Sequence record: OR983334.1
DNA: 64,000 nt
Direction: 5' to 3' (one strand)
Source of the DNA: Escherichia phage 1-6bf
Shown here: positions 24,456-41,315 of the stretch, one piece after another
Numbering within the stretch: position 1 is the stretch's first letter
How the letters are laid out: each line of letters starts with the position of its first letter
Program-made: the position numbers and the translations under genes
Notes under the pieces: generated by a model
Database searches by the model: none
What the model was told of the DNA's origin: nothing
What the model saw: only the letters and a program-made list of their open reading frames with translations

Positions 24456-24484
24456 TTGACAGCGAAAACAACATGATTCATAAT
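24456..24484 (+). promoter_or_regulatory. Strong sigma70-type promoter P2 (duplicate of P1)
   Basis: TTGACA, 17 nt, CATAAT, then GAGCAT; spacer nearly identical to P1. Confidence 0.6.
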
Positions 24485-25404: not shown

Positions 25405-26304
25405 ATGGCTAAAATCTTTACTCTGGTTAACGAATCCGGTTTTAATGCTCTGGCTAACAACATTCGCAGTAATAACGCGGCGATCAAACAAGATGTTTCT
25501 AACTTCCTGTTAGGGCACTTACAGCACTTCCGCAGTAATGGTAAGAAGCTGGACGTATTGCAGGCGGCGGTTGACTTCTTGTTAACTGAACGTTTCCGTG
25601 ATATGGATGTTATTGCCACTGCAATTACTTTCTTAACTCCTATCAAGTTTAACACTGATGCGGCAAACGGTCGTAAAAAGTGGATTAATCTGGAAGGTGA
25701 AGCGAAAGCGAAAGAAGATGCGAAAGAAGCGCAAATTAAGGCCAAAATGGAACAAAATCGAGCTCGCTGGTCAAATGCTTTCGAAAATTTTGCCCTCGGT
25801 CGTGAAATTGAAGTCGATAACCCTAACTTTTACAAGGGTTGCAATGACAACGTAGCGGCACACCTGCAAATACCTGCGAAAAACAAGGAAGATTTTAATC
25901 AGGATATTTACGCTTTAGTTGAACGCTTGAATGCAATCCGTATCGAAGCCAAATTGCTGGCTGATGAGCGCAACGGCGCTACTAGCGATAATACTATCGC
26001 CTTAAGTGAAGAAGTCGGCAAGGTTAAAAAGTCTTTCGACTCACTCATCAAGAAAGTAACGGCCTCAACGGTAGCGATCTCCGATGACTATCTGATGAAC
26101 GCATCAAGCAAGGAATTAGAATCCCTCGATTCATACGCTGATGAAATGGAAAAGACTATCGCAGCTATGCAGGAGAAGTTAGAAGGACTGCGCAGTCGTA
26201 TCTCTTCAACGGTTGCTACCCGTACCGAACAAGCGGCGAAAGCAGAAGAGGAAGAAGTATTGCGTAAAGCGGCTGAAATTATGGCGGCACGCCAAGCGGC
26301 ATAA
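25405..26304 (+). CDS. Hypothetical early protein (about 300 aa, helical)
   Basis: ATG at 25405 with AGGTG RBS; ORF track frame. Confidence 0.45.
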   Translation: MAKIFTLVNESGFNALANNIRSNNAAIKQDVSNFLLGHLQHFRSNGKKLDVLQAAVDFLLTERFRDMDVIATAITFLTPIKFNTDAANGRKKWINLEGEAKAKEDAKEAQIKAKMEQNRARWSNAFENFALGREIEVDNPNFYKGCNDNVAAHLQIPAKNKEDFNQDIYALVERLNAIRIEAKLLADERNGATSDNTIALSEEVGKVKKSFDSLIKKVTASTVAISDDYLMNASSKELESLDSYADEMEKTIAAMQEKLEGLRSRISSTVATRTEQAAKAEEEEVLRKAAEIMAARQAA

Positions 26305-26338
26305 GTAAGACAATTCAAATAAGCATAAGGCGCTATCT

Positions 26339-26372
26339 TAACGGGTAGCGCCTTTTCTTTTATCAGTGCATT
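26339..26372 (+). terminator. Rho-independent terminator
   Basis: GGCGCTA..TAGCGCC hairpin followed by TTTTCTTTT. Confidence 0.5.
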
Positions 26373-26406
26373 GATTCAGTGCATTAATCAAAGAATCTAA
26401 TCAAAG

Positions 26407-26634
26407 GTGACGATCATGTTAATTACACATACCACGATCTATAGGAATCTTGTCAACGGTCAACATTACCGCCTATCTAAAAAGTATGGCGTTGAATGTA
26501 AATGTGTTATTACCGGTGAATGGTATCCGTCTCCAATGAAGATTGAGACGTTGGAACGTGAAGCGATCAGCTATATTATCACGCAAGAAACAACGTTAGG
26601 CCGTATCTTAAGAAAGTTGGGATTAAGAAAATGA
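26407..26634 (+). CDS. Hypothetical protein (75 aa)
   Basis: ORF track. Confidence 0.3.
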   Translation: MTIMLITHTTIYRNLVNGQHYRLSKKYGVECKCVITGEWYPSPMKIETLEREAISYIITQETTLGRILRKLGLRK

Positions 26635-26855
26635 TATTCAGTAGCAATTTTGGTAAGTGTCCTATTTGTGAGAAACATCGCAGCACGGGAAACCATCGCA
26701 AATGTAGTAAGATATTACAGCGCCAACGTGATGACAATCATTGGGATACTGTACACGCTAATCAGCGTAAAGAAGAAGTTAGAAAAATGGCTGTTAAAGC
26801 GTCCTTTGCTCAATCCACCCGTATTGAACACATCCAAAGGTATCAAGCATTATGA
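26631..26855 (+). CDS. Small Cys/His-containing protein (74 aa)
   Basis: ORF track; CPICEKHRSTGNHRKC. Confidence 0.3.
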   Translation: MIFSSNFGKCPICEKHRSTGNHRKCSKILQRQRDDNHWDTVHANQRKEEVRKMAVKASFAQSTRIEHIQRYQAL

Positions 26856-27061
26856 TCACTAATATTTCAGAGTTTAAGAAAGCTCCCTCCCGACTGTTAG
26901 GTCGTCGTGTTGTATATCTTTACAGCAACAAAGGTAAATGCACAACCGGACGAATTACAACGGTGAGTAGTGCCAATAAGAAACTACTAAAGTTGTGTGT
27001 AACTATGGATGACGGTACAATCCTTCTACGTAGTTGGAAATCGTTTAGTTTACTTGATTAA
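26852..27061 (+). CDS. Hypothetical protein (69 aa)
   Basis: ORF track. Confidence 0.3.
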   Translation: MITNISEFKKAPSRLLGRRVVYLYSNKGKCTTGRITTVSSANKKLLKLCVTMDDGTILLRSWKSFSLLD

Positions 27062-27130
27062 GTTATTTGTTCAAGCCTATCGCCTTGATGGGCTTGCCCG
27101 ATATAACTTATCACTGAAAGGAATAAGATT

Positions 27131-27574
27131 GTGGCTAAATCTAAAATCAGCATGAAGGGCGGTCGTTGTTTTTCTATTTCTGAATTGGAGAAAGAGAAGC
27201 CAAAGGCAACCAATCACGTTAGTAAGCGTAGTTTAAAACGTCGTGCTGCAAAGGCTGAAGCTGAATCCCATGTTCCTTCTAGTGTGGCAAAACGTGTAGG
27301 CCATCGTGTCCATCGTGCTGATGCGTTGTTGTTAGCTGATCATAAACGTTCTTTGTTACAGAGCGGGGGCGCTAAAACAGAAGAAGAGAAGAAGTTAGAA
27401 ATCTTCTGTAATGGTCGCACCCGTGGTAAGCAGAAGTTTAAAGGTAGCACGAAAGACCCGCAAGCATTCCCTAAGACAAGTCAGTGTGCGCCTGATGTTT
27501 TCTACGCAGATAGTAAACATAAATGGGGCGTTGAGAAATACATTGACCCCATCAAAGAGGCGAGGGTAAAATGA
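27131..27574 (+). CDS. Basic Lys/Arg-rich protein (147 aa)
   Basis: ORF track; strongly basic composition. Confidence 0.35.
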   Translation: MAKSKISMKGGRCFSISELEKEKPKATNHVSKRSLKRRAAKAEAESHVPSSVAKRVGHRVHRADALLLADHKRSLLQSGGAKTEEEKKLEIFCNGRTRGKQKFKGSTKDPQAFPKTSQCAPDVFYADSKHKWGVEKYIDPIKEARVK

Positions 27575-27744
27575 TTTATTCAGAGATTCTAAATAAAGTC
27601 AGAGAGATGCGGCAAGGTGATGCAGTAGTTGATGTTCTGGTCCATCTGGTAGCATCCTTGCAAGAAGAAAACGAATTGGTTAAACAAGAAAACAAGGCAT
27701 TAAGGAAGGCAATAAGTAACCTCTCCAATAGCCTCTCTTTTTAG
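27571..27744 (+). CDS. Small helical protein (57 aa)
   Basis: ATGA start/stop overlap with upstream gene; my translation MIYSEILNKVREMRQGD.. Confidence 0.3.
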   Translation: MIYSEILNKVREMRQGDAVVDVLVHLVASLQEENELVKQENKALRKAISNLSNSLSF

Positions 27745-27800
27745 TACTATGACGCTCTTTCTGTAGCGTCGTGCCCTCTCCCCATTTGAAGCTTCCGCAT

Positions 27801-27824
27801 AGCCGCCTTTGAGCGGCTTTTTGC
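27801..27824 (+). terminator. Rho-independent terminator (first of a tandem pair)
   Basis: AGCCGCCTTTGAGCGGCT followed by TTTTG. Confidence 0.45.
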
Positions 27825-27885
27825 GTTGCTGTAAGTGCATTTGCGAGTGTATTTATAGCAACGGTCATGTGTTGCTTTCAGGTTT

Positions 27886-27911
27886 GCCCCGGCTACGGCT
27901 GGGGCTTTTTT
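27886..27911 (+). terminator. Rho-independent terminator (second of the pair)
   Basis: GCCCCGGCTACGGCTGGGGC followed by TTTTTT. Confidence 0.55.
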
Positions 27912-27960
27912 ATGCCCGTAAAACAGGAGGTAGCAAGTTCTGATAACAACGGCCCAGCTA

Positions 27961-28350
27961 ATGTTGACATTGACTATTTATTATGAGGCAGGGAATCAGC
28001 CAACCGCATGTAAGGCTTTAGTTGCGGATACCGTGATAAATAGAATGGCCCAACGAAAACTGACCGCTGAACAGGTGATAAGACAAAAGAACCAGTTTGA
28101 GTGGATTCCGGTACTATTAAAACAGGAGAAACCTTATAAACGTTATGTAAAGCTGATTCGTGATAAAAATCCGATGACTAAACAAGCCATTGGAGAAAGC
28201 GAGCGGTTAGCTAAACGTGCCCTTAAGAAGAATTATGTTCCTCTGTATAGTGGGACTTACTTTCAGAGTAAGAGCGAAGGGGTGCCAAAATGGTATGCCA
28301 ATCCTATGTATTGTGGTGATTTAGTGTTCGATAATAGCTCTAGGGAATAA
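27961..28350 (+). CDS. Hypothetical protein (129 aa)
   Basis: ORF track. Confidence 0.35.
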   Translation: MLTLTIYYEAGNQPTACKALVADTVINRMAQRKLTAEQVIRQKNQFEWIPVLLKQEKPYKRYVKLIRDKNPMTKQAIGESERLAKRALKKNYVPLYSGTYFQSKSEGVPKWYANPMYCGDLVFDNSSRE

Positions 28351-28549
28351 TCACTAGTGCCAGATTTGACAAACTAAATTCCTTTATAAACCAACCACTT
28401 AGTAAATTTATTGAAAAAGATGGCAGTATTCTGGAACTATGGGTAATGCTCTGTATATAGACCCTTTGAAAATTTCTTAGAAAATAAGTTTACTAAATAT
28501 AACTTACTTAAATAATATTACTTTTAATCTCTGATAAAGGGTAAATAAT

Positions 28550-28846
28550 ATGACTTTAGAAGTATATAAATTCCTTTTTGTAAGCTGTTTAACTATCAGC
28601 GTTCTAGGATTTATTATTCTCAGAAACAAAGCAGCAAGCTGGGAGAGAATGTATAAATCCCTAGTTCGAGTGGATGAGATGTATAATGAGAAAGTTAAAG
28701 TAACACTTAACGATCTTATTATGCAAGTAGAGGACAGAAACAAGCGTCTTCAGAACCTCAACAATGAAGTATTACGCCTTGCTCGTGCTAATGAAGACTT
28801 GCGAGTAGCTATTGCTAAGCAGCAGGAGATTAACAATGAAGCATGA
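28550..28846 (+). CDS. Membrane-anchored coiled-coil protein (98 aa)
   Basis: N-terminal hydrophobic segment then heptad-like region (NKRLQNLNNEVLRLARANEDLRVAIAK). Confidence 0.35.
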   Translation: MTLEVYKFLFVSCLTISVLGFIILRNKAASWERMYKSLVRVDEMYNEKVKVTLNDLIMQVEDRNKRLQNLNNEVLRLARANEDLRVAIAKQQEINNEA

Positions 28847-29093
28847 TATTAATACAGCCCCTGTAGTCAAGCAGCTGAAAGATCTGAAGGTGGGAAGTGT
28901 TTTTGAAACTGTGCCACCTAAAAATAAATTATATCTTACAGTAAAGCTAGATTCCTCAACCGTTTATTCAGCTAGTTGGAAGTCTGATGAAAGGGTAGTA
29001 GTAGATCTCACTTCGGATAGAATAACAATGTTGAGAAAAGATACTGTTGTTCAGGTAGTTGATAATGCTCGACTTACCAATAAGGTGGATTAA
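28836..29093 (+). CDS. Small protein, paralog family A member 1
   Basis: ATG with AGGAG RBS; shares DLKxGxVF and downstream hydrophobic blocks with seven other ORFs. Confidence 0.45.
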   Translation: MKHDINTAPVVKQLKDLKVGSVFETVPPKNKLYLTVKLDSSTVYSASWKSDERVVVDLTSDRITMLRKDTVVQVVDNARLTNKVD

Positions 29094-29095
29094 AG

Positions 29096-29332
29096 ATGAA
29101 AGTTAATATTAAATCCGATCGTACAATGCTTCGCTTAAATAACATGAAGCCGGGGGTTCTGTTTGAGTCTAAAGGGTTCTTTTACATTAGAACTGACAGT
29201 CTATACGCAGAAAATTATGTGAACTGTGTTGATGTGGTAACTGGAAAGCTCATTCCTATTAAACGAGATGAAGTCTGCCAAGTACGCAGTGATCTCCACA
29301 TAACCAATATAGAGGCTAAAGATGAAGATTAA
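29096..29332 (+). CDS. Small protein, paralog family A member 2
   Basis: NMKPGVLFE..FYIRTD..VNCVDVVTGK. Confidence 0.45.
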   Translation: MKVNIKSDRTMLRLNNMKPGVLFESKGFFYIRTDSLYAENYVNCVDVVTGKLIPIKRDEVCQVRSDLHITNIEAKDED

Positions 29333-29579
29333 TCTTGAAGTAAAGGAACCGTCTTTGTGTGTTGGTGATCTCAAACTTGGAGATGTATTCCAAATCAGGG
29401 AAACACGAACAGATTTCTACATGGTTGTTCAGCTATTTACCCCACAGATTGAAGAGACCAAGCCTTCTGATGGTGGTTGTGTCGTCCTCAGTCTGACAAA
29501 TAAGCAAGTCCTTAAGCTTAGATCGAAAAGCAAGGTTGTTCTTCTTCATGATGTTATTATTACCAACAAGGGTAAGTAG
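29322..29579 (+). CDS. Small protein, paralog family A member 3
   Basis: DLKLGDVFQ..GGCVVLSLTNK. Confidence 0.45.
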   Translation: MKINLEVKEPSLCVGDLKLGDVFQIRETRTDFYMVVQLFTPQIEETKPSDGGCVVLSLTNKQVLKLRSKSKVVLLHDVIITNKGK

Positions 29580-29798
29580 ATGGAAATTAAAGTAGTTGAG
29601 ACTCCTAAATATGCAAATGTGGAAGATCTTAAAGGGGGAGATGTTTTCTCTTATGATCAAAAATTCTGGCTGATGCTAGATGATGATCTCTCTAATGGAC
29701 TACGCAGGGCTGCCAATCTAAGCACTGGTTATGTTGGTAATTTCAATCCATCAACCACTGTTATGCCTCGCCCTGATTTGTATTTGACTCAAAAGTAA
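29580..29798 (+). CDS. Small protein, paralog family A member 4
   Basis: DLKGGDVFS..FWLMLDDD..ANLSTGYV. Confidence 0.45.
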   Translation: MEIKVVETPKYANVEDLKGGDVFSYDQKFWLMLDDDLSNGLRRAANLSTGYVGNFNPSTTVMPRPDLYLTQK

Positions 29799-29935
29799 CA
29801 CCGACTTATAGCCCTTGTGTTTATCAGAGGGCTATGTGAGGGTGTTCCTCATTAACTTATTAATTCAGGCATATGCCACACCGCTAGGGAGAGCTTGCTC
29901 GAACATCCGGTGCTAGACTAAAACCTGTTAATTTT
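29796..29935 (+). repeat. Intergenic repeat element, copy 1
   Basis: Shares TAACACC..TATAGCC..AGGGCTATGTGAG..GCTAGGGAGAG..CTCGAACATCCG blocks with 35771-35900. Confidence 0.45.
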
Positions 29936-30156
29936 CGAAAGACTTTCTGATATGTAGGGGTACGTATTAGTTTGGGATTCAGGAGACTTCCTAGGGGTAG
30001 GGAGTCTTCACCAGTTGGAATAAGAGATAGCTCTAGAACCTGAACTCTTAGGCAGAGAAGGTCGGCAATGAGTACGCGGTCAGGATTAGTCTACTGACTA
30101 GGGCTATTCCTTATATCAACTGGCAATAATGCCTCCACTAACAAAGAGAGATAGGT

Positions 30157-30297
30157 ATGAAAGTATCAACCAAACGTATGAACCGCCCTGAACGTATGGA
30201 TGCAGTAGCTAACGGTGCTCTGAAACTGGAAGGCTTTTGGATTCATGCAATGTCAGCCATTCGTAACAAGCAAGGTGGTTGGACGTATAACAGTTAA
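30157..30297 (+). CDS. Candidate small ORF (46 aa) followed by a terminator
   Basis: ATG at 30157; MKVSTKRMNRPERMDAV..; below ORF-track cutoff. Confidence 0.3.
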   Translation: MKVSTKRMNRPERMDAVANGALKLEGFWIHAMSAIRNKQGGWTYNS

Positions 30298-30306
30298 TAA
30301 ATAAAA

Positions 30307-30335
30307 GGCTGCCTTCGGGCGGCCTTTGTTGTTTT
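30307..30335 (+). terminator. Rho-independent terminator
   Basis: GGCTGCCTTCGGGCGGCC followed by TTTGTTGTTTT. Confidence 0.6.
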
Positions 30336-30378
30336 AATTAAGGGACAACTCTTACTTAAACTAACAAGAGGTGCTTAT

Positions 30379-30723
30379 ATGAGACGCATGGTTAAAGATT
30401 GGGTCACTAAATCAGGTCTTCGTGCTGTGATTATGCACATGAACGACTCCCATTTTTGTGGATATGTAGAGCTACCAGACAGCTTAAAACATAAAAACTT
30501 CACCGGATATAACGGAAAGGAAAAGGTTTGTTATGTAAGTGTTCATGGTGGTGTCACATGGCAAGACACCCTTGAAGAGATGGGTGGTTTAAATACAATC
30601 GGATTTGATTGTGCCCATGCAGGTGATAAGACACGGTTCAACCCTAACGGGGTTCCAAGAACAGAAGCTTTCTGCATCAACGAATGCGAACAAATGGCTG
30701 AACAACTGAGAGATCTTGAATAA
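30379..30723 (+). CDS. Hypothetical protein (114 aa)
   Basis: ORF track. Confidence 0.35.
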   Translation: MRRMVKDWVTKSGLRAVIMHMNDSHFCGYVELPDSLKHKNFTGYNGKEKVCYVSVHGGVTWQDTLEEMGGLNTIGFDCAHAGDKTRFNPNGVPRTEAFCINECEQMAEQLRDLE

Positions 30724-30901
30724 AATGTCTAAGCAAACAATAAAACATACGCAAGCTGGTTACTCTTATGTCAACTCCCCTTGCTGCGGTGCTCGTATTA
30801 ATCTGGTTAAGGAAGAGGTTCGTATCGTTCAGCGTGGCGCTACTGTTGTTCGTTCATGCTGTGTCTGTGGTAATGATATTTTTATCAAAGGTAAAGTATG
30901 A
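30716..30901 (+). CDS. Small zinc-ribbon-like protein (61 aa)
   Basis: CCGAR..CCVCGND Cys pairs. Confidence 0.3.
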   Translation: MNKMSKQTIKHTQAGYSYVNSPCCGARINLVKEEVRIVQRGATVVRSCCVCGNDIFIKGKV

Positions 30902-31149
30902 AAAACTTTCAAGCTGCACCAATCACTAAAGTGATCGAAGTTGACGGTGTGATGATGACTGTTCCTCTGAACACTCGTTACATTGCAATTGACAAGATGG
31001 GTTATGTATGGGCTTGGAAGATTAAGCCTAGCTATAACGCATTGTTTGATGAGTTTGTTTGCACTGGTACGTACAGTCCTACATTCTTGGGTTTGTTTAG
31101 TGAGTTTGATGGTCAGTATAAAATCATCACTCTCCCTGCTTGTGCTTGA
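30898..31149 (+). CDS. Hypothetical protein (83 aa)
   Basis: ORF track. Confidence 0.3.
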   Translation: MKNFQAAPITKVIEVDGVMMTVPLNTRYIAIDKMGYVWAWKIKPSYNALFDEFVCTGTYSPTFLGLFSEFDGQYKIITLPACA

Positions 31150-31156
31150 GGTTAAT

Positions 31157-31318
31157 ATGTTCAAGTGGCTAAAGCGTGTCTTTCATTGTCATGATTGGAA
31201 GATTATTAATACTCGCCCTCTGGTCTATACAGATTCAGATGGGAATAACGACAAGGGCACACGTTACGTTATTCAGTGTAAGGTGTGTGGTGATGTTAGT
31301 CATCGTGATGTAATCTAA
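31157..31318 (+). CDS. Small protein, paralog family B member 1 (53 aa)
   Basis: MFKWLKRVFHCHDW..CKVCGD; below ORF-track cutoff, supported by paralogy. Confidence 0.4.
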   Translation: MFKWLKRVFHCHDWKIINTRPLVYTDSDGNNDKGTRYVIQCKVCGDVSHRDVI

Positions 31319-31327
31319 GGAATCATT

Positions 31328-31492
31328 ATGATCAAATGGTTCAAACGCTTCTTTCATTTCCATGAGTGGGAAGATCTTCATACTTATGAACTGACGATCA
31401 CAAATAAACTTACTGACAGAGAGCGACAAGGGTTGCGTATCTACTCTCGCTGTAAAGTGTGTGGTCTGCACAAGAAAACAGATCTGATCTAA
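31328..31492 (+). CDS. Small protein, paralog family B member 2 (54 aa)
   Basis: MIKWFKRFFHFHEW..CKVCGL. Confidence 0.4.
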   Translation: MIKWFKRFFHFHEWEDLHTYELTITNKLTDRERQGLRIYSRCKVCGLHKKTDLI

Positions 31493-31500
31493 GGGGTGTT

Positions 31501-31710
31501 ATGTTCTTTCGTAAGAAAAAGCCCGAAGATTCTGGATGTAAACACGAGTGGGTGATCACTGAGAACCTACATATCACCCACGCTAAAGACACTCCGGTCG
31601 AGAGAAAAGAATCTCGTGTATCTCGTATCTGTAAACACTGTTTGAAAATAGAACAGCATAAAGTTCCCGGTCATATTGGTCACGATGTAGCCATTCGTAT
31701 CTTTAGTTAA
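31501..31710 (+). CDS. Small protein, paralog family B member 3 (69 aa)
   Basis: CKHEW..ICKHCL shares the family B motif. Confidence 0.4.
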   Translation: MFFRKKKPEDSGCKHEWVITENLHITHAKDTPVERKESRVSRICKHCLKIEQHKVPGHIGHDVAIRIFS

Positions 31711-31733
31711 ACAAATCTAGCACCCTTAGCTCA

Positions 31734-32174
31734 ATGGAGGTGGTATTGAAAATAGAGTTGGAATACCCCTTCATCAATGACTGGAGGTTGGGGTATTTAA
31801 GGACAAGTAAGGATGGGAGGAGGCGTGTTGACCTATTCAATTCTAACACAGATAGGACTACGATCTCTTATGCAAGGTATTTAATGTCTTGCCATGTAGG
31901 GAGGTATCTTACTGCGGAGGAAGAGGTAGATCATGTTGATCAAAATCCAACCAATGATGAGATATCTAACCTTCAGATTCTAAGCACAAATGATCACCTA
32001 AAGAAGACCTTAGAGAACAGACCTAAGGGTGTGGTCATTACTTTGATTTGTAGTAATTGTGGCACATCTTTTGAGAGAAGGGGTAACAAGGTCCACAAAG
32101 AAAACCAAAACCATTTTTGTAGTAGGTCTTGCAACGGTAAGTATTACTGGAGCAAGGGTTTCAATAATAAATAA
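31734..32174 (+). CDS. HNH homing endonuclease
   Basis: EVDHVDQNPTNDEISNLQILSTNDH HNH motif plus C-terminal Cys-rich zinc-binding segment. Confidence 0.7.
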   Translation: MEVVLKIELEYPFINDWRLGYLRTSKDGRRRVDLFNSNTDRTTISYARYLMSCHVGRYLTAEEEVDHVDQNPTNDEISNLQILSTNDHLKKTLENRPKGVVITLICSNCGTSFERRGNKVHKENQNHFCSRSCNGKYYWSKGFNNK

Positions 32175-32277
32175 GAGCTTCTAGCGAGGATGTATCTTCC
32201 CCGCCTTCTAAGCGGTCGTTAAAGAAGTAATTGGAGTATGCAGGTTCGAACCCTGTCATCCTCGCTAGAGGCTCTTG
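32172..32277 (+). ncRNA. tRNA-like structured element (about 20 bp outer stem, internal UCU-loop hairpin and T-arm-like hairpin)
   Basis: Outer stem AGAGCTTCTAGCGAGGATG / CATCCTCGCTAGAGGCTCT; inner CCGC-CTTCTAA-GCGG and GCAGG-TTCGAAC-CCTGT; no canonical D-arm. Confidence 0.3.
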
Positions 32278-32287
32278 GAGGTGTGTT

Positions 32288-32569
32288 ATGTCATGGGGTG
32301 GTGTAATATCCTTAATCTGTATCTTCCTTGTCTGCATAGCCCTTACAGGCTGCGTACAGAGCCGTCCTGATGGATGGTGTGCAGTAGCAGTGGAAGGTGT
32401 TTGTGTTTCTCGCTGGCACAAAGGTGAGAAGGTTCCTTCTGGTGAAATTGATATGCGTTACAGTGGTATCTCATGCCTGAACGGTGCAGCAGTAGATGAG
32501 GAAACTAAAACCTTGTCAGATGCACAGTGGTGTGGTGGTTCTGTAACAACAACCGGTAAGGAGTGGTAA
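32288..32569 (+). CDS. Small lipoprotein candidate (superinfection-exclusion-type)
   Basis: MSWGGVISLICIFLVCIALTGCVQ: hydrophobic segment ending in LTGC lipobox, Cys-rich mature part. Confidence 0.4.
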   Translation: MSWGGVISLICIFLVCIALTGCVQSRPDGWCAVAVEGVCVSRWHKGEKVPSGEIDMRYSGISCLNGAAVDEETKTLSDAQWCGGSVTTTGKEW

Positions 32570-32570
32570 T

Positions 32571-32819
32571 ATGACAGCTCATTATTGGAATACAAAGAAG
32601 CTTCTTGAAGAGATGGCTGGAGGTAGTAGGGTACAGCTAATCTCCATGCTTCGAATGGATGCTCGCTCCTTACGCTTCCAAGTAAAGATTGGTAACTTCA
32701 GTGATGGCCTTTATTACACGCTGAAGGAAAGGATCAAGAAGACTCACTTCATCATGTACGGAATCAAACCGAGAACGTACGTTAACTACATGTATTGGAA
32801 TACATGCTACGATAATTGA
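32571..32819 (+). CDS. Hypothetical protein (82 aa)
   Basis: ORF track. Confidence 0.3.
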   Translation: MTAHYWNTKKLLEEMAGGSRVQLISMLRMDARSLRFQVKIGNFSDGLYYTLKERIKKTHFIMYGIKPRTYVNYMYWNTCYDN

Positions 32820-32826
32820 GGTTATT

Positions 32827-33048
32827 ATGAAACTAGACTCTAAGCAGTCACTTAAAACCGCTGAACTGTCCACGCTGCCAAACGGAAGTATCTTTGGTCA
32901 TGATAAACACTTCTGGATTAAAACAGACATCATAGACGATGGGTATATTACCTGTGTCAACCTTTGGAATGGTTCAGTGGATGGTTATCGCCCTAGCGCA
33001 AAGGTAGTCCCTCAGCCCGATGCAAAGGCTATAGGTTTAGTTTACTAA
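32827..33048 (+). CDS. Small protein, paralog family A member 5
   Basis: TLPNGSIFG..FWIKTDIIDDGYITCVNLWNGSV. Confidence 0.45.
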   Translation: MKLDSKQSLKTAELSTLPNGSIFGHDKHFWIKTDIIDDGYITCVNLWNGSVDGYRPSAKVVPQPDAKAIGLVY

Positions 33049-33057
33049 GGAGCCTGT

Positions 33058-33231
33058 ATGAGTTGTTTTGGTGGCGGTGAAGTAGATGACGATGATGACA
33101 TGGAATCAAACGGCACATGTCCTGATTGTGGGTGTGAGACATGGGATGGGGTTTCTGTCTACCCTGCCTGTAGTTATTCACCAGTAATTTGTAAAACATG
33201 CGGTGATCAGCCGTGTGACCAGTCTTGCTAA
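33058..33231 (+). CDS. Candidate small Cys-rich acidic protein (57 aa)
   Basis: MSCFGGGEVDDDDD..CPDCGCE..CKTCGDQPCDQSC; below ORF-track cutoff. Confidence 0.3.
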   Translation: MSCFGGGEVDDDDDMESNGTCPDCGCETWDGVSVYPACSYSPVICKTCGDQPCDQSC

Positions 33232-33844
33232 GAGAATATTATGACTGAAGAATTTTTAAAGTGGTTTGGTGATACCTTCAAAGAGTATCTATTCTCTCCA
33301 GAAGACTTTGAAGAACTGAAAACCTACACTTGGTTGGCTTGGAGAGATAGCCGACGAGAGATGAATAAGTAATATCGTGAAGGATTCTTACGAGAGTCCT
33401 TTGAGATAGGACTTCAGATCTCCTATCAAACTAACATTCATGTAACTAGCCCATAAGGGCGTTACCCTTTAATAACCCAGCCCACTAAGGGGGCGGGAGT
33501 TTAGTGCTGGATTAGCATAACGCTTATTCCTACAAAGGCAACCGATTGTTAGATCTTACATGCAATACTAATTAATAGGATAAGGGAGGATTCGTCCCCT
33601 CCCCCTATTTATAAATTATCAGGAGAGTACTCTAGCTGATTAGCTGTAGAAGGGAGGCCGATATCTACGGCGTGGCCCAGAGCTAGTGTACTCTCCTGAT
33701 GAGGCACCTCCTCATCGTGGTAAGCTGTGGAATAATCTTTACAGCAGTTACTTGAAGTAGCCTGTACGGCCCTCAGCAAAGAGTCCGGACGATATCTGAG
33801 TGACTTTAAAAACAGATGGAGCCAGGTGGAATCCCTGGCAATTA

Positions 33845-33992
33845 GTTACAGGTATAGCTTATGAGGCTCACTAATGCAGAGCCTACGGTAAAGCAGTCGC
33901 CCGTGGTCAAATGACCGTATGCCCATTGGATGCATTCCTTTGGTGATGGCTAGGGAGTCCGAGCGTAGGTTCGAATCCTACACCTGTAACCA
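33845..33992 (+). ncRNA. tRNA-like element with canonical T-arm, acceptor 3' strand, discriminator and encoded CCA; 5' acceptor partner 139 nt upstream
   Basis: GTAGG-TTCGAAT-CCTAC then ACCTGTA-A-CCA at 33965-33992; complementary TACAGGT at 33847-33853; intervening region forms several hairpins but not a standard cloverleaf. Confidence 0.35.
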
Positions 33993-34020
33993 AATCGAAT
34001 AATATCTAATTGGAGGATGT

Positions 34021-34332
34021 ATGAAAGCACGAAGAACTATATGGACTCCGATGCAGATTGAAAATCTTCGGAGACTAATCAAAGAGTACTCGGTTAAAGA
34101 AGTTGCTCAGATTATGAATGTAACGGAGAATGCAGTTAATACAGCTTGCACTAAATTCGGAATATCAAGAGCTTCAATCCGAGTTAAATGGTCTGAAGAA
34201 GAAGACCAGTTCCTTATCCGTAATGCTGGGTTCATGTCTATTCAGAGAATGGCTGACATGCTCGGTAGAAGCTATGCTGCTGTACAGAACAGGGCATGTA
34301 TGCACCTTAATATTAGCCTCAAACTTAAATAG
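34021..34332 (+). CDS. Putative DNA-binding protein with two HTH-like repeats (103 aa)
   Basis: Two W..E..L.. helix-turn-helix-like units (TIWTPMQIENLRRL.. and VKWSEEEDQFLIRN..). Confidence 0.35.
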   Translation: MKARRTIWTPMQIENLRRLIKEYSVKEVAQIMNVTENAVNTACTKFGISRASIRVKWSEEEDQFLIRNAGFMSIQRMADMLGRSYAAVQNRACMHLNISLKLK

Positions 34333-34340
34333 GAATCAAT

Positions 34341-34589
34341 ATGAAGATTACTCACAAGAAAGAAGAAGTGACCACGGTTGATATCAACTCCCTTCCCAGC
34401 GGAGCAGTATTTAAATTCCCTGAGAGTGCTACTCTCTATGTTAAAGGGTCTGTGTCTGAAAGTCCTAATGTAACCGTTAACTCTGATCGAGCAATTACCC
34501 TTCGTTTATCCGATGGTAACGTAACAGCACCTTCTATCTGGTGCCGAGTTGTTCCTGTGTCAGCAGAACTTTTGGTGGATAACACATAA
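34341..34589 (+). CDS. Small protein, paralog family A member 6
   Basis: SLPSGAVFKF.. Confidence 0.4.
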   Translation: MKITHKKEEVTTVDINSLPSGAVFKFPESATLYVKGSVSESPNVTVNSDRAITLRLSDGNVTAPSIWCRVVPVSAELLVDNT

Positions 34590-34834
34590 TGAAGATCCTT
34601 CCCAAGATTAAAGATAAAACTGTTTCACTGGATACAATTATTCCCGGAAACCCTTTCGTAATCCAACAAGGTTTAGCATCGCCTCAGTATTATATGCGAG
34701 TTACCAATGTATCCAATAAGATCTCTGTCGAAGAAGGTTGGATTACTACAGTTAATCTTATGACTGGTGTTCTGGGTGTTATGAAAAGTGATACTCAGGT
34801 TGAAATGATTCGTATGTCAGTGGTTCAGGAGTAA
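34589..34834 (+). CDS. Small protein, paralog family A member 7
   Basis: IIPGNPFVIQ..WITTVNLMTGVLGV. Confidence 0.4.
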   Translation: MKILPKIKDKTVSLDTIIPGNPFVIQQGLASPQYYMRVTNVSNKISVEEGWITTVNLMTGVLGVMKSDTQVEMIRMSVVQE

Positions 34835-34836
34835 TT

Positions 34837-35085
34837 ATGAGCACTATTCATATTAAAGTTAAGAGCAAAGAGGAAACAGTCCTCCGTGTTAAAGATCTAA
34901 ACATGTCAGATGTGTTCACTCTCCAAGAGTGCCATCTTCAAAAGATTTACATGCTGACAGCTAAGAGCATAGGTTGTCAACCTGCTGGAGCTGTTAACTT
35001 AGGAACTGGAGAAGTTCGTCCTGTGTCTGGAGATATGGTTGTTGGTGAGAAGTTTATTAAGGCTGAGATTATTTTAACTTCATAG
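34837..35085 (+). CDS. Small protein, paralog family A member 8
   Basis: DLNMSDVFTL..GAVNLGTGEVRPV. Confidence 0.4.
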   Translation: MSTIHIKVKSKEETVLRVKDLNMSDVFTLQECHLQKIYMLTAKSIGCQPAGAVNLGTGEVRPVSGDMVVGEKFIKAEIILTS

Positions 35086-35092
35086 GTGATCT

Positions 35093-35305
35093 ATGACTCA
35101 AGAAGAGAAAGATATACTCATCCAGAATGCATACCTACTGTTCTCCTCTGAGGAAGTATTGTTCAACCAACTTTCTAAGTTGTGGAAAGTGTCTGAGGAA
35201 GAAGCTAAAGAGAAGTTTTATTCTGACATAACAGAAGATTACAAATCTTTTCTTGGTGAGGTGCTGAGAGATCGGCATGTGTATCTAAGTAACTACGCCT
35301 GTTAA
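35093..35305 (+). CDS. Hypothetical protein (70 aa)
   Basis: ORF track. Confidence 0.3.
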   Translation: MTQEEKDILIQNAYLLFSSEEVLFNQLSKLWKVSEEEAKEKFYSDITEDYKSFLGEVLRDRHVYLSNYAC

Positions 35306-35539
35306 TAGGAAAACAAATGAGACGTAAAGCATATTCTTATGACGATATGATTAACCAGAAAGGCTTCGGTCAACGACAGCCTGATGGTTCAATTATCTGG
35401 TTCGTAAATGGACAGAAAAAGGTAGCTAAATAAGCCTTCTTCTCTCCTCCTTTTAGTACTATGACGCCTCTCTGTGGGCGGCCCAATTTGCGTAGGGAAT
35501 TCCCTCTACGCAGCCATGACTTTTTAAGGAATTTCCCCT

Positions 35540-35773
35540 ATGTCTAAAGTAAGCGCAATTGATGCAATCCGTCAACCATTCCAGTTCCAATCTAAATCAA
35601 CCCAAACCTTCAGTGAGCCTAAGCAAATTCGCTTGGGCGGCACAGAGAAGACTGTGTTTGATCTGGCTAAAAACAAGAGCGTTACTGTAGTTGAAGGTGG
35701 CACTCTGGTTAACGTTTCACACCGCATCCGCACTGGCAAGACTGCCAAAGACCGTGCTAAGAAAGGCGAGTAA
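35540..35773 (+). CDS. Hypothetical protein (77 aa)
   Basis: ORF track. Confidence 0.35.
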   Translation: MSKVSAIDAIRQPFQFQSKSTQTFSEPKQIRLGGTEKTVFDLAKNKSVTVVEGGTLVNVSHRIRTGKTAKDRAKKGE

Positions 35774-35900
35774 CACCTATAGCCTTCTTCGGAGGGCTAT
35801 GTGAGTTATTCTGACTCAACTAACCTAATCTTAATATATTTCCCGTATGGGGCCGATGCTAGGGAGAGGAACATTCCTCGAACATCCGTCGGATAGATAT
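35771..35900 (+). repeat. Intergenic repeat element, copy 2
   Basis: Same conserved blocks as 29796-29935. Confidence 0.45.
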
Positions 35901-36154
35901 TTTAAGAGCAGGTTATCCACAGATATTGGGTAATATCTTTTTGTATTTAAAGCTTGACTCTTTTCGGAGAGTCCTTTTTTAAATTCAACGAGAGGAAATA
36001 TGTCTAAATTAGATTTAAAACTGCTAGCAGCAGCGGTAGTGATTTGTGCACTAGCACTGGTAACGCAGAGAACATCTGGATTTATTCAGTGTTTCTTTTC
36101 TGGGCAATCCACTTATCAGTGGGTTATTGACGAGTGTAAACAACAGGAGTAAGT

Positions 36155-36517
36155 ATGAATACACGTCCCATCAAGGGCAACGTTAATATTGAAACTCTGA
36201 ACAAGGTTGCATCAAACCTCGGTGGAATGTCCAACGATGAGCTTGAGCAAGAACTTGCTTGGATTGCAAATGGTATCAAAGTTGCTAAAGGTAAGATTGC
36301 TCGTGAGCAAAGTAATATGAAAGCTCACAAGTATATCATCCGTCGTGCAAATATGTTACCGGAGCGGGTTGTACATCTTGCCCGTAAGAACTACGAAGGT
36401 GCTAAAGAAGCCCTGCTTGAAGCAGAGTTCCAGAAGCATCAATTTATGAACAACTATCGAAACTTCCGAGATATTCTCTATATCCGTAAATCGATTGAGT
36501 TGATTAAAAACCAATAG
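36155..36517 (+). CDS. Hypothetical protein (120 aa)
   Basis: ORF track. Confidence 0.35.
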   Translation: MNTRPIKGNVNIETLNKVASNLGGMSNDELEQELAWIANGIKVAKGKIAREQSNMKAHKYIIRRANMLPERVVHLARKNYEGAKEALLEAEFQKHQFMNNYRNFRDILYIRKSIELIKNQ

Positions 36518-36528
36518 AGGTTGGTATA

Positions 36529-37728
36529 ATGTTTCCAGTAACATTAGAAGATACTGAAGGTAATGTTTTAACGGTCAACCCTCCTTGTTATGGGTTCCTT
36601 CAGCTACGCAATTATAACGGGGGCGTTGAGGAAGAGGATGAAGAATATGATGAGTATTACGAACCTAACATGTATGAGGCAACTCATGGATGGAATATGC
36701 ACGTTCGAGTGTGGCATGAAGAAGCTAACGTTCGTAGTGCTGATGGGGAAGAATTCCGATTAAGCAGAGAGATGGATATGTGTAAAATCAAGCATATCTG
36801 GAACTCTGGAACTCATATGAAAATGTTAGGTTTTAGACGTTGGCGCGATGAAAAGCATGTAGCTGAAGCTTTAAGTTGGTGTTCGTATGAAGATGAAGAC
36901 ACGCCCCCTAAGAATAACATTGAACGTTGGAACGACAAAAACCCTGAACATCGAACCACACCTCGTGCTGTACTGGAAGCTATGGAAGCATTTGTGGACA
37001 AAGATCGTCCCTCCTGTTTACGCTGGCACGATAAAGGTTTTATGGGGGTAGCAACTGAGAACATCCCTGCTGATCGTTGTCTGTTCTATTTGATGTTAGA
37101 TCGAACCTTCTATTGTGAAGATGAAGAGAGTCAAGTTGAAACCTTCCTTCATAAATGGTTGGTTGAAGGCTGGACAATCCTTCAGGCTTATGTTTACTCA
37201 CGAATGGTTAGTACCTACACTAACCTCTTGGGGGAAACGAAAGCAACTCTGGTTGGTAATGATTGGGATGCTTGTATCTTCCCAGCGTCGCTGTTTACAG
37301 TCGGCATGGCTGATAAATATGCTGAAGCATTTCAAGTGCCATGGCGTCAACAGTCGTACAGAGATGGCTGTGGTCACTTCCGTGATGAAGATTTTAAGTG
37401 GATTCATTATGAGAATGATGAAACAGCAGAATTACGAGTTAATAACTCAATGTTCTTGCCAGTGATGCACCCCGATCTAGTAGAGAGTGAATCAGAAATC
37501 CTGAAATGTGATAACCTTTTGGTTAACTTTGCTCGTCGTGTCTCTAAAGATGAAAGAACAGCAAATAAATTAGTATATGGCATTCGTGCTGAGACTAAAG
37601 ACCTGTTCAACATCTATAACATTGTTCAGCGATTTAGTAGTGGAACTCTGGACCAAAGTTCGGAGTATTCAGTGATTCCATCCTCTGAGTGGGATGGTGT
37701 TATGAGCGGATTATTTTTAGGAAAATAA
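36529..37728 (+). CDS. Hypothetical protein (399 aa), first gene of amidoligase cluster
   Basis: ORF track; Trp/acidic-rich; no motif recognised. Confidence 0.4.
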   Translation: MFPVTLEDTEGNVLTVNPPCYGFLQLRNYNGGVEEEDEEYDEYYEPNMYEATHGWNMHVRVWHEEANVRSADGEEFRLSREMDMCKIKHIWNSGTHMKMLGFRRWRDEKHVAEALSWCSYEDEDTPPKNNIERWNDKNPEHRTTPRAVLEAMEAFVDKDRPSCLRWHDKGFMGVATENIPADRCLFYLMLDRTFYCEDEESQVETFLHKWLVEGWTILQAYVYSRMVSTYTNLLGETKATLVGNDWDACIFPASLFTVGMADKYAEAFQVPWRQQSYRDGCGHFRDEDFKWIHYENDETAELRVNNSMFLPVMHPDLVESESEILKCDNLLVNFARRVSKDERTANKLVYGIRAETKDLFNIYNIVQRFSSGTLDQSSEYSVIPSSEWDGVMSGLFLGK

Positions 37729-37738
37729 AAGGTTAGTT

Positions 37739-38710
37739 ATGTCAATCTCCACAACGATCGTACCTCTTAACCTTCAACAGGATTTAGGGGAACAGAAGTT
37801 CTTAGGTCGTGGGTGTTTCGGTATCCACAACTACATGCAAGGCCAGTGTGTAAATGACATTAATGGTGAAGTTATCACGGAAGAAGGGCGCTATCGTCGC
37901 TTCAACCGTGATATCAACTTGCAACTGGAGATGTTGAATTACTGGACTCACTCTTTTCATGGTCATGTTACATCTGATATTGAAAAGAATTTGGTTGAAA
38001 CAGCAGACATTATGAACTCCATGTCTTGCTATCGTGACGTATTTACGATCACTTCAGCGAATAGTGTTGCTGTCAACCTTCGTGAGCATCCAGCAGATCA
38101 GATCTTCACAGGACTTATGCTCTTTCGTAGTATTCTGGAAGGGCAATATCGTGGAATGGATTTCCTAGCAGAAGGAATTGAAGACAGGGAAGAGTGGCTG
38201 AAGCGTAAACGCATCGGCATCGCTCTAGTGTTAGCTGGGTTGGGTCGTGACTTCTTCGGTGGATGGTCTCAACGAGGAAGAGCTAATGGGAGTAGCGAAA
38301 GCACCTCTATTGTTATTAACAACAATATGTCAGCAGCAGCATTCCTTCCTTTGGTTGTAGACTCTGATGAATACACGAAGCAAGTATGGGTTCAAAACCC
38401 CTTCGGTGTTGGCGACAACGAGAATGGTTATGTTCGTAACCATAACCAAGATGCCTTACGAAGATTTGCTCGTGCTAAAGATCAAGACCCGGACGAGTAT
38501 GAAACAATGTCAGAGTGGTTAAGACTCTGGTCCAACTGTTATGGTCACAAACGTGAATCAATAGACGACAAGTTGGGAAACATTACAGTACAAAACTTTA
38601 CATCCCGACTGATTCAAAGAACTGGAGCAGATTCCGGTCTTACTCTTGAAGAAGTTGGTAACACAATCTCATCTCTCTTTTCTGAACTAGTGGAGTATTA
38701 CAATGACTAA
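37739..38710 (+). CDS. Hypothetical protein (323 aa), amidoligase cluster
   Basis: ORF track; no motif recognised. Confidence 0.4.
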   Translation: MSISTTIVPLNLQQDLGEQKFLGRGCFGIHNYMQGQCVNDINGEVITEEGRYRRFNRDINLQLEMLNYWTHSFHGHVTSDIEKNLVETADIMNSMSCYRDVFTITSANSVAVNLREHPADQIFTGLMLFRSILEGQYRGMDFLAEGIEDREEWLKRKRIGIALVLAGLGRDFFGGWSQRGRANGSSESTSIVINNNMSAAAFLPLVVDSDEYTKQVWVQNPFGVGDNENGYVRNHNQDALRRFARAKDQDPDEYETMSEWLRLWSNCYGHKRESIDDKLGNITVQNFTSRLIQRTGADSGLTLEEVGNTISSLFSELVEYYND

Positions 38711-39509
38711 GCGCAAATTCCTCATCGGCTCTGACCCTGAAATGTTCGTTCGTACTAGCAATGGTATCATCACTTCTGTAGCCGGTTTATTAGGCTGCTC
38801 TAAGGACGATAAAATCGCTCTGGCTAAGGATGTTCGTCTCCAAGAGGACAATGTACTGGCTGAGTTTGATATTGACCCACAGAGCGGTTTTGAAGCGTTT
38901 AACGATAACATGCAACGTGGTATTGATCTCACCAATAATGTCCTGAACAAACTGGACATGGAAACAGCTCCTGGTGTTAGCTCTCACATCTTCACTGAAG
39001 AAGAGATGAAGACCTTTAATGAATCAGCGTTCATCTTCGGGTGCACTCCTGATTTCAACGCCTTCACTGGTCAGAAAAACCCATCCCCGACTTCTCAGAA
39101 TAAGGGACTTCGTACTGCCGGTGGTCACGTACATCTTGGCGTAGTTGGTGCTTTGGATATCACTCTGCAAACTCAGATGATGCTTGGTGTGCTGTGTGAC
39201 TACTTCCTATCCCTCCCAGCAGTAATTATGGACAAAGATACTCGCCGTAAAGAACTCTACGGTAAAGCATCTGCAATCCGTTATAAAGACTATGGTATTG
39301 AATACCGTTCTCTGTCTAACTTCTGGATTAGTGATCGTGAAAACCGTAAGTTTGTTTACGATCAGGTTGACAAGGTTGTTCAGCAATGTGATATGTCCAC
39401 TCTGATGGCATTGCACTCTCGCCTTCCGATTGAGAAGCTTCATGAAATCATTAACGGGAACAATGTTAAAGAAGCTGACCAGCAGATCAAACTCCTTCAG
39501 GTAGCATAA
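38703..39509 (+). CDS. Divergent amidoligase / GCS2-like COOH-NH2 ligase candidate (268 aa)
   Basis: LIGSDPEMFV .. GGHVHLGV .. YGIEYRS pattern parallels the neighbouring amidoligase; start overlaps upstream gene. Confidence 0.4.
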   Translation: MTKRKFLIGSDPEMFVRTSNGIITSVAGLLGCSKDDKIALAKDVRLQEDNVLAEFDIDPQSGFEAFNDNMQRGIDLTNNVLNKLDMETAPGVSSHIFTEEEMKTFNESAFIFGCTPDFNAFTGQKNPSPTSQNKGLRTAGGHVHLGVVGALDITLQTQMMLGVLCDYFLSLPAVIMDKDTRRKELYGKASAIRYKDYGIEYRSLSNFWISDRENRKFVYDQVDKVVQQCDMSTLMALHSRLPIEKLHEIINGNNVKEADQQIKLLQVA

Positions 39510-39518
39510 GAGGTTATC

Positions 39519-40136
39519 GTGAGCTTAGTAGCTGATTTTTCTCATTACTATAATGGTACATGGATTGCTAAACGAGCAGGTAATATCAACCTTCCATGTT
39601 TTGTGATTGGTGTTGAGCAGAGCGGTAACTTCCGCAGTGATGACTTCTCTCACGAAGCAGAGCAGGCTCTGTACTTTGTTGTAGAGCAGTGGTACAAGAA
39701 CGAGCAAGGGCATCTTCGAAACACTACGATGAATATCCCAGTGTTCGACCCAACCCTGATTCTTGAATCACCTGACGTTGGTTATCTGTTCCATAACGGT
39801 AACACTGTAAGCTGGACTCATATTAACCCTGTTCGCCAGAGAGCAAAGGGCTTAATGGGTAATAAGATTCGAAATGCTCCGGGTGTTGGTCGTGCTATCT
39901 CCGGAGAGATGGTTTACAGTCTGTTCAATCCTGAATTCGAAGGATTGGTTACTCGTTATATTTACATCAACCCTACAGATGGTAAGGTGCATTATAAAGG
40001 TGCACTGGTAGGACAAGTAGATCTGGAAGCACCTCGTGACTCTTACGGTCAGCAACCGATGCGACTTCTGGAACATTTTCATCACATTTCTGAAAACCTT
40101 AGCAATTACAATATTACGTTGGTGGATTCGTTATGA
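39519..40136 (+). CDS. Hypothetical protein (205 aa), amidoligase cluster
   Basis: ORF track. Confidence 0.4.
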   Translation: MSLVADFSHYYNGTWIAKRAGNINLPCFVIGVEQSGNFRSDDFSHEAEQALYFVVEQWYKNEQGHLRNTTMNIPVFDPTLILESPDVGYLFHNGNTVSWTHINPVRQRAKGLMGNKIRNAPGVGRAISGEMVYSLFNPEFEGLVTRYIYINPTDGKVHYKGALVGQVDLEAPRDSYGQQPMRLLEHFHHISENLSNYNITLVDSL

Positions 40137-41312: not shown

Positions 41313-41315
41313 AAA

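Follow-up and report, generated by a model that had tools for sequence, protein, structure and literature searches.

The window considered here is the whole analysed stretch of 64,000 nucleotides from Escherichia phage 1-6bf (OR983334.1). Two of its intergenic spacers hold full copies of a repeated element, copy A (29796-29913, + strand) and copy B (35771-35892, + strand), each beginning at the stop codon of the preceding gene, and a partial copy, C, lies between them. The window belongs to a Kuravirus, that is, to a coliphage like phiEco32 or SU10. Over positions 29000-36600, it shares 99.6% identity with Escherichia phage 1-6af and about 90-93% with phiEco32, SU10, NJ01 and further Kuravirus genomes, to which it runs in the reverse orientation; it follows that its + strand is the sense strand for the early genes. 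In phiEco32 numbering, copy A is flanked by gp113 and gp112; copy B is flanked by gp91 and gp90 and stands at the boundary between the hypervariable early genes and a conserved block that runs from amidoligase/amidotransferase genes to replication genes. phiEco32 also has a partial copy, after gp101, at the site equivalent to that of C. The parts of the three copies and their tails are the following:

29796-29798, + strand: TAA stop of the open reading frame (ORF) 29580-29798, a homologue of phiEco32 gp113; these are also the first bases of copy A (conserved AGUAAC)
29807-29836, + strand: copy A, helix H1 (UAUAGCCCU / AGGGCUAUG, 12-nt loop)
29838-29850, + strand: copy A, helix H1b (GAGG-GUGUU-CCUC)
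29851-29867, + strand: copy A, conserved AUUAAC motif and G-free linker of A, U and C
29868-29877, + strand: copy A, helix H2 (GGC-AUAU-GCC), with GC/CG swaps in two of its three pairs
29878-29913, + strand: copy A, 3′ domain with P1 (ACACCG/CGGUGC), internal loop (CUAGGGA / GAACAUC) and P2 (GAGCUUGCUC)
29914-30156, + strand: tail of copy A, conserved, structured and non-coding, up to the start of a 46-aa gp112 homologue
33370-33460, + strand: partial copy C (20.2 bits, E 0.021, with the covariance model R2 described below)
35771-35773, + strand: TAA stop of ORF 35540-35773 and first bases of copy B
35778-35801, + strand: copy B, helix H1 (UAUAGCCUUC-UUCG-GAGGGCUAUG)
35803-35817, + strand: copy B, helix H1b (GAGU-UAUUCUG-ACUC)
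35818-35841, + strand: copy B, AACUAAC motif and G-free linker
35842-35851, + strand: copy B, helix H2 (CCC-GUAU-GGG)
35853-35892, + strand: copy B, 3′ domain with P1 (CCGAUG/CGUCGG), internal loop (CUAGGGA / GAACAUC) and P2 (GAGGAACAUUCCUC)
35900-35941, + strand: tail of copy B, antisense-like to the E. coli nrdD leader, with a DnaA box at 35913-35921

Both full copies have the same fold on the + strand. Starting at the stop codon, helix H1 is followed 1-2 nt later by H1b, a UAAC-containing motif, a single-stranded linker without G (17-24 nt in A and B), the 3-bp mini-hairpin H2 and, finally, the 6-bp stem P1, which encloses a symmetric 7x7 internal loop (5′ CUAGGGA, 3′ GAACAUC) and the hairpin P2. 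An unstructured linker of this kind, made of A, U and C, 18-31 nt long and flanked by structure, is present in every lineage in which we have found the element. Copy C is a 5′ half only: after the TAA stop of ORF 33241-33372, it contains H1 (33379-33402, with a UACG loop), H1b (33405-33427), the sequence CAAACUAAC and H2 (CCC-AUAA-GGG), and the P1/loop/P2 domain is missing. In the window, the distance from the stop codon to the start of the copy is 0-9 nt in all three cases (it reaches 17 nt in L065, a divergent contig introduced below), and each copy opens a stretch free of ORFs (358, 648 and 226 nt).

The repeat had been noticed in a sequence-only reading of the window, which listed five ordered blocks, TAACACC and TATAGCC among them, and all five are found where it placed them. 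The onset of the repeat at a stop codon also holds (the TAA of ORF 29580-29798 for A and that of ORF 35540-35773 for B), and the ATAGCC..GGCTAT hairpin it described is helix H1, which has 8-10 bp and, in B, a UUCG loop; the general picture of a conserved intergenic module that carries a hairpin and follows two stop codons was, consequently, correct. The same reading admitted that the shared blocks might be too short or too gapped to be significant. Taken singly, the short blocks are indeed not significant, but their ordered combination and the shared fold are. For instance, the pattern GCTAGGGAGAG-N(2-12)-CTCGAACATCCG has exactly two matches in the window (29883-29909 and 35858-35888) and none in 100 dinucleotide shuffles. 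The reading had also envisaged further copies, of which the window supplied only the partial one at ~33370-33460, again directly after a stop codon. Specifically, the covariance model R1, based on 20 distinct homologues, recovered exactly two full copies, A and B (E about 1e-25 to 1e-30), together with a weak third hit at 33363-33476, and a second, broader model (R2) gave the score listed above for C. A generic repeat finder did not report the element in the window, because its copies differ by indels. Finally, the conserved non-coding blocks reach past the ends originally given to the repeat, to ~30156 after A and to a terminator at 35956-35982 after B.

Several observations indicate that the conserved entity is an RNA structure. 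Independent minimum free energy folds of 12 representatives of five lineages gave identical helices, and RNAalifold recovered H1, H2, P1 and P2 from a plain MAFFT alignment. In that type of alignment (A3), 99.6% of the cells pair, compared with 85.5% in shuffles and 33-47% when the pairing partners are slid; compensatory double changes are seen in nine of the 23 pairs, and the covariation score (0.381 vs 0.132) was reached by none of 500 shuffles. When L065 and the copy from Klebsiella phage Klyazma were added (A5), pairing was 98.6% and 13 of the 23 pairs were compensatory, in an alignment that was fitted to the model and thus leans towards structure. The changes are easily followed in P1, which occurs as ACACCG/CGGUGU, UCACCG/CGGUGA, GCACCG/CGGUGU, CCGAUG/CGUCGG, UCGGUG/CGCCGA and AUAGCG/CGCUAU, and, in Citrovirus, as CAGCG/CGCUG or CAACG/CGUUG. 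Similarly, H1b, which MAFFT misaligns, occurs as GAGG/CCUC, GAGU/ACUC, GAGC/GCUC, GAGUUA/UAACUC, GGGA/UCCC and AUAGGA/UCCUAU.

The strand on which the element acts may also be read from these helices. The U.G pairs of H1 and P1 correspond to A.C mismatches on the opposite strand; as such pairs are sensible on the + strand only, the element is an RNA. Compensatory changes and strand-specific G.U pairs together imply selection on the fold of the + strand RNA, and the fold of the minus strand is no better than that of shuffled sequence (z -0.4 to -1.4). In the internal loop, two positions beside P2 hold only A.G (23), C.A (14) or A.A (2) among 39 distinct sequences from several lineages, a switching that we interpret as the behaviour expected of a non-Watson-Crick pair. 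The remaining loop positions were fixed by the search patterns, so their invariance is not independent evidence, and the loop differs in Klyazma (CUAGGAA/UCUCCAUC) and in Citrobacter phage CVT22 (CUAC/CUC). Conservation is also seen at the nucleotide level: in a comparison of the window with positions 50000-89916 of Salmonella phage 7-11, the part of that genome searched, the B block and its terminator were the sole non-coding match (69.5% over 233 nt), with an identity on a par with that of core enzyme genes. We are therefore confident that A, B and the half-copy C are members of one family of conserved, structured RNAs read from the + (early mRNA sense) strand.

The family is widespread. By BLAST, 98 phage records contain A and 103 contain B, the latter being 97 plus six Salmonella phages of the 7-11 group (Moazamivirus); as the neighbouring gp88 gene is present in 97 records, A and B occur in essentially every Kuravirus/Suseptimavirus genome. 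Moazamivirus is a different phage family from Kuravirus, and the finding of B only in that group applies to the searched part of phage 7-11. Collections of viral, metagenome and genome sequences were also scanned for the pattern, with the model as a filter; this brought in Kuravirus- and Moazamivirus-like contigs and the divergent copy of L065, a 48.7-kb contig binned as a Flavobacterium metagenome-assembled genome whose proteins are related to those of phage CVT22. Outside the known phage groups, the covariance model rejected most of the pattern hits (L010, L011, L014 and most of L019-L072) as chance matches. Two further copies came from a search of Citrovirus genomes: that of Klyazma scored 33.5 bits with R1 and 66.4 bits with R2, and that of CVT22 scored 29.8 bits with R2, from whose training set CVT22 was absent. 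The genes that flank the copies vary between strains and genera and the RNA is retained, which fits a role at the level of the operon rather than of a specific gene. In L065, positions 1900-5700 code for at least six small paralogous early proteins, all of which end in (D/E)EENE.

We have not found a match to the element among known RNA families. At gathering thresholds, Rfam 15 produced only one weak tRNA hit (32186-32264) in the whole window, and permissive searches of 29700-30400, 35700-36050 and 33350-34040 yielded only chance-level hits, all far below the gathering scores; the best of them (E 0.054) lies outside the element, on the terminator at 30275-30341. As no paper describing the element was found in the literature either, it is apparently an undescribed RNA family, present in the early operons of sigma-factor-encoding podophages from three taxonomic groups. 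The tRNA hit itself is borderline (29.7 bits, with a gathering score of 29): an ARAGORN search for tRNA and tmRNA called none in the window, this site included, and relatives annotate a tRNA-Arg there. Another tRNA-like sequence is found in 33600-34020, a long ORF-free stretch that contains GCTAGGGAG and whose 3′ part has a T-arm (GTAGG-TTCGAAT-CCTAC) and an acceptor-like pairing between 33846-33855 and 33981-33990, followed by A. Neither ARAGORN nor Rfam calls anything in this stretch, and its positions 33782-33857 match N4-like coliphages and Klebsiella phages, where they are sometimes annotated as tRNA-Undet or tRNA-Cys.

The position of the copies with respect to transcription signals is the main basis for the function that we propose. 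Two near-consensus sigma-70 promoters are found on the + strand at 24008-24036 (TTGACA-17-TATAGT) and 24456-24484 (TTGACA-17-CATAAT), and they are probably the main early promoters. In phiEco32 and SU10, the early promoters lie in a spacer near the genome end, matching 24008/24456 (PMC4281155, PMC8948821). The promoters for the phage sigma factor gp36 carry the motif tAATGTAtA 6-8 nt upstream of the start, and those that have been mapped precede genes 6, 13, 26, 40, 58 and 68 (PMC8948821); by inspection, this motif is absent from the element, which consequently was rejected as a gp36 promoter. Downstream of the copies, three terminator-like structures are observed:

30304-30337, + strand: strong intrinsic terminator, the first intergenic one past copy A (~395 nt)
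33584-33613, + strand: weaker terminator-like hairpin past copy C
35956-35982, + strand: intrinsic terminator (GACUCU-UUUCGG-AGAGUC and a U-run), ~65 nt past copy B

These are all the intergenic terminator-like sites between 28 and 36 kb, and they are located 70-400 nt past A, C and B; the full set of such sites on the + strand is 26327, 27801/27886, 30304, 33584 and 35956. The terminator at 35956-35982 is conserved with B in phage 7-11; there it carries the annotation of a terminator and lies ~45 nt downstream of the B homologue. Only two early promoters were validated in 7-11, both at the far right end (PMC8948821), and transcription must therefore pass the terminator after the B homologue to reach the sigma gene. 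The authors of that work inferred antitermination by a strategy that “remains to be defined” (PMC8948821). As a separate observation, the terminator hairpin (GGCTGCC-TTCG-GGCGGCC) and its flanks at 30298-30337 are 85% identical over 40 nt to those at 60919-60958, so that a terminator module is duplicated in the window.

The element probably governs the fate of the transcript or of the polymerase. As every copy is followed by an untranslated stretch and by the next terminator between genes, our best guess is that the module is a cis-acting element of the antitermination type on the nascent early transcript; we rank this possibility first and hold it tentatively. In such a model, the RNA would fold once the ribosome departs at the stop codon, and the folded RNA would engage the host RNA polymerase during elongation, or a factor that accompanies it. 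As a consequence, transcription from the sigma-70 promoters at 24008-24036 and 24456-24484 would survive the untranslated stretch, and the polymerase would read past the intrinsic terminators found after the copies (30304, 33584 and 35956). Readthrough would then carry transcription into the conserved downstream gene block. The function would be akin to that of putL/putR in phage HK022 or of nutL/nutR in lambda, with an unrelated fold.

The likeness to put is considerable. Both are multi-hairpin RNAs of phage early operons that occur as paralogous copies of alike structure and diverged sequence, and neither has an evident dedicated partner protein (PMC9378689). Both are also placed past sigma-70 early promoters (here, 24008/24456) and before terminators (here, the copies at 29.8, 33.4 and 35.8 kb and the terminators 30304/33584/35956). 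By contrast, put RNA has ~70 nt and two stem-loops that form a V (PMC9378689), whereas the present element has 120-150 nt, five helices and a long single-stranded linker. It is a feature of put that it acts in cis without protein factors, through the zinc-binding domain of the RNA polymerase beta′ subunit. Unlike put, the present copies are 1.3-11 kb away from the strong early promoters and stand in series on one strand. Rfam contains no put model with which the two could be compared.

In lambda, nutR is located directly after the cro stop codon and before tR1, and must be free of ribosomes; the copies described here likewise follow a stop codon and precede a terminator. Additionally, the stretch after H1b (CCUCAUUAAC in A and UUAACAAU in CVT22) resembles the boxA consensus, which is GCUCUUUAACAA in rrn operons and CGCUCUUA in lambda. 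By inspection, it matches the consensus at 8/12 positions in Kuravirus A, 5/10 in B-type copies and, over the 3′ part only, 9/10 in Klyazma and 8/9 in CVT22. In rrn leaders, boxA is linear and poor in G and comes after a hairpin, and long untranslated RNAs are shielded from Rho by boxA systems (PMC7665894). A 15-nt boxB-like hairpin is not present in the element, nor is an N-like protein conserved beside it. One protein considered for that role was the 46-aa basic homologue of gp112 (30157-30297; MKVSTKRMNRPERMD...), which is encoded between the tail of A and the strong terminator and is conserved as gp135 in 7-11 (KRMNRP..M..NGALK; PHROG 13305/35232, without a function). It was rejected as an N-like partner, as it follows only Kuravirus A, is not found beside the Citrovirus copies (where the genes are unrelated) and has no family annotation. 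For the neighbouring proteins in general, Pfam and PHROG searches gave no function.

Several observations weigh against antitermination. No sequence-level link of the element to RNA polymerase was found, and strong + strand terminators upstream of A (26327 and 27801/27886) have no preceding element. The Citrovirus copies have no strong terminator nearby, and the internal loop is reduced in Klyazma and CVT22. No copy was found in GAP52 (35000-76631) or Pecta (32000-49573). R1 (with filters off) and R2 were applied to positions 24000-31000 of HK022, the immunity region that should hold PL/PR and the put sites; the best hit had 7.7 bits (E 0.76), which rules out that the element is a put homologue. 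With regard to boxA, the match is weak, the critical G is absent and the 5′ GCUC is not conserved; furthermore, the CUC of the boxA-like stretch is the 3′ strand of H1b, where it is base-paired and covarying. We estimate that a match of such size is expected by chance in an A/U-rich 130-mer, and an identity with boxA seems unlikely, as the similarity is weak and the critical bases are paired and variable. Finally, the layout of B suits a small RNA (sRNA) equally well: its 5′ part is structured and is followed by a stretch antisense to a host mRNA, then by an A/U-rich region, and it ends in a terminator with a U-tail.

The host-like stretch in the tail of B deserves separate description. Positions 35900-35941 are identical, in antisense orientation, to the 5′ leader of E. 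coli nrdD (-14 to -55 from the ATG) at 36 of 42 positions, and they match 5423 of 5426 E. coli genomes in one place, immediately upstream of nrdD. The predicted duplex between the phage + strand RNA and this leader (-55.1 kcal/mol, vs -24.9 +/- 4.1 for shuffles) reaches the Shine-Dalgarno region. The core of the stretch, CTGTGGATAACCTGTTCT, is kept in the nrdD leaders of E. coli and four other enterobacteria and in the tails of both Kuravirus and Moazamivirus; the Kuravirus tails share extra flanks with the E. coli leader but with none of the other leaders compared. There is no overlap between the stretch and the published NrdR-box oligonucleotide, and the only perfect DnaA box of the window (35913-35921) lies inside it. 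The stretch could serve as an antisense RNA to the nrdDG of the host or, at the level of DNA, as a decoy for DnaA or some other regulator. A replication origin at the DnaA box was rejected, as the GC skew does not change near 35.9 kb and its sole switch is at ~22 kb, where transcription diverges. It may even be envisaged that the element represents a novel class of antiterminator RNA in phages, with a fold unlike those of put and nut, that lets host RNA polymerase transcribe tens of kb from a few sigma-70 promoters at the genome end in phiEco32-like, 7-11-like and Citrovirus phages, and that the tail of B, as a copy of the host nrdD leader, acts in addition on the operon of the host's anaerobic ribonucleotide reductase as an antisense RNA or as a decoy for DnaA or a regulator; we consider this combined scenario unlikely.

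With this arrangement in mind, it is possible, if rather doubtful, that the module is the structured body or scaffold (e.g., one that binds a chaperone or protects the 5′ end) of sRNAs derived from 3′ untranslated regions (UTRs), whose variable tails would be the effectors. For B, this predicts an RNA of ~215 nt, or shorter if cut in the linker, that ends at 35956-35982 and pairs with the nrdD leader through its tail. Like the known sRNAs of this origin, B is in a 3′ UTR (as the element always is), has the classical 3′ layout of an A/U-rich stretch, a Rho-independent terminator hairpin and a U-run, and shows long complementarity to a host leader; the 36/42 match with its strong predicted duplex, the core conserved in leaders and phage tails and the existence of other conserved tails after A and the Citrovirus copies would all be in line with such a role. 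Unlike in those sRNAs, the repeated module is not the seed, the tails of A and of the Citrovirus copies do not end in a terminator and no link to a chaperone is known. Moreover, a host-match search of 29796-33790, a range that takes in the tail of A and some of the region past C, gave no match, the nrdD-like stretch could work as DNA given its perfect DnaA box, and a scaffold alone leaves the conserved internal loop unexplained. An intercistronic processing or stability element is a weaker candidate still, and we regard it as distinctly unlikely. Here, cleavage by RNase E (or RNase III) would take place in the G-free linker or in the P1-loop-P2 helix, leaving an upstream mRNA that ends in the protective H1 and H1b and a downstream RNA that begins with H2/P1/P2. 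The stable UUCG/UACG-loop hairpins right after the stop codon, the G-free linker flanked by structure in all lineages and the intercistronic position are consistent with it, as is the likeness to the RNase III sites between T7 early genes, which are also repeated intercistronic structured RNAs of an early polycistronic transcript whose stems are broken by a conserved internal loop. However, a simple site needs neither five covarying helices nor a loop conserved isosterically across phage families, and only 2-3 sites are found in ~40 early genes. Compared with those of T7, the present copies are also few and have extra hairpins and a linker; typical RNase III substrates have longer helices than theirs.

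A regulated attenuator, bound by a protein (an early one of the phage or one of the host) or by a small ligand, seems to us quite improbable. Binding would control the formation of the downstream terminator, especially that at 35956, and would produce a timed switch from immediate-early to delayed-early expression. The conserved internal loop does resemble a binding pocket, the order of aptamer and terminator in B is kept from Kuravirus to 7-11, and B is found precisely where the hypervariable early genes give way to the conserved replication block. Nevertheless, no alternative pairing was seen between the element and the terminator stem, which are ~62 nt apart, the genes downstream of different copies are unrelated, and no co-occurring RNA-binding protein was found, the gp112 homologue being absent beside the Citrovirus copies. 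Least probable of all, and very much so, are the DNA-level options of the sequence-only reading, a terminator/promoter cassette or a small mobile repeat. In their favour are the hairpin right after the stop codon, some -10-like hexamers in the A/T-rich linker (including a TATAAT in Suseptimavirus A) and one 9/12 sigma-70-like match in B (35811-35840). Yet H1 and H1b are followed by GUGAG or AACUAAC and not by a U-tract, a terminator scan made no call on the element, and the real terminators are separate features at 30304 and 35956; an intrinsic terminator is thus ruled out. A sigma-70 promoter was likewise discarded: the match is at background level (16 sites found in the region vs 21.8 expected from shuffles), and its -35 sits in the covarying H1b, where CTGACT becomes CTGGCT together with the RNA-compensatory change of GAGT to GAGC. 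The strand specificity of the G.U pairs also disagrees with a DNA-level role. As for mobility, 2.5 copies in fixed syntenic positions, in ~100 genomes and in another phage family, without terminal repeats or target duplications seen, do not agree with a miniature mobile element. Presence/absence polymorphism, which had been suggested as a check, was not observed: the copies are syntenic in essentially every Kuravirus/Suseptimavirus record, and no empty sites were found in closely related genomes. Of the initial suggestions, a site for protein binding is still conceivable, though at the level of RNA, as selection acts on the fold of the + strand RNA.

The tail of A has structures of its own. 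Two conserved hairpins, at 29950-29967 (AUAUGUA-GGGG-UACGUAU) and 29982-30009 (with a loop containing CUAGGGGUA), have stems that change by compensation in Suseptimavirus, and similar hairpins with UAGGGGUA-type loops are found in the tails of the L065 and Klyazma copies.

Few RNAs are known to act directly on the elongating bacterial RNA polymerase, namely put and, with the help of factors, nut/boxA. Early transcription across many terminators in phiEco32-like phages is an acknowledged open question, for which the element, in the antitermination model, offers a precise and mutable candidate; its covariation-supported structure and its natural variants can guide mutagenesis. Should the mechanism prove to be another one (e.g., an sRNA scaffold or a processing signal), the element is still a well-supported new RNA family. 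This family spans phages that infect Escherichia, Salmonella, Klebsiella and Citrobacter, and phage therapy work makes use of several of them; through nrdDG, its copy B may tie early phage transcription to the dNTP (deoxynucleoside triphosphate) supply of the host.

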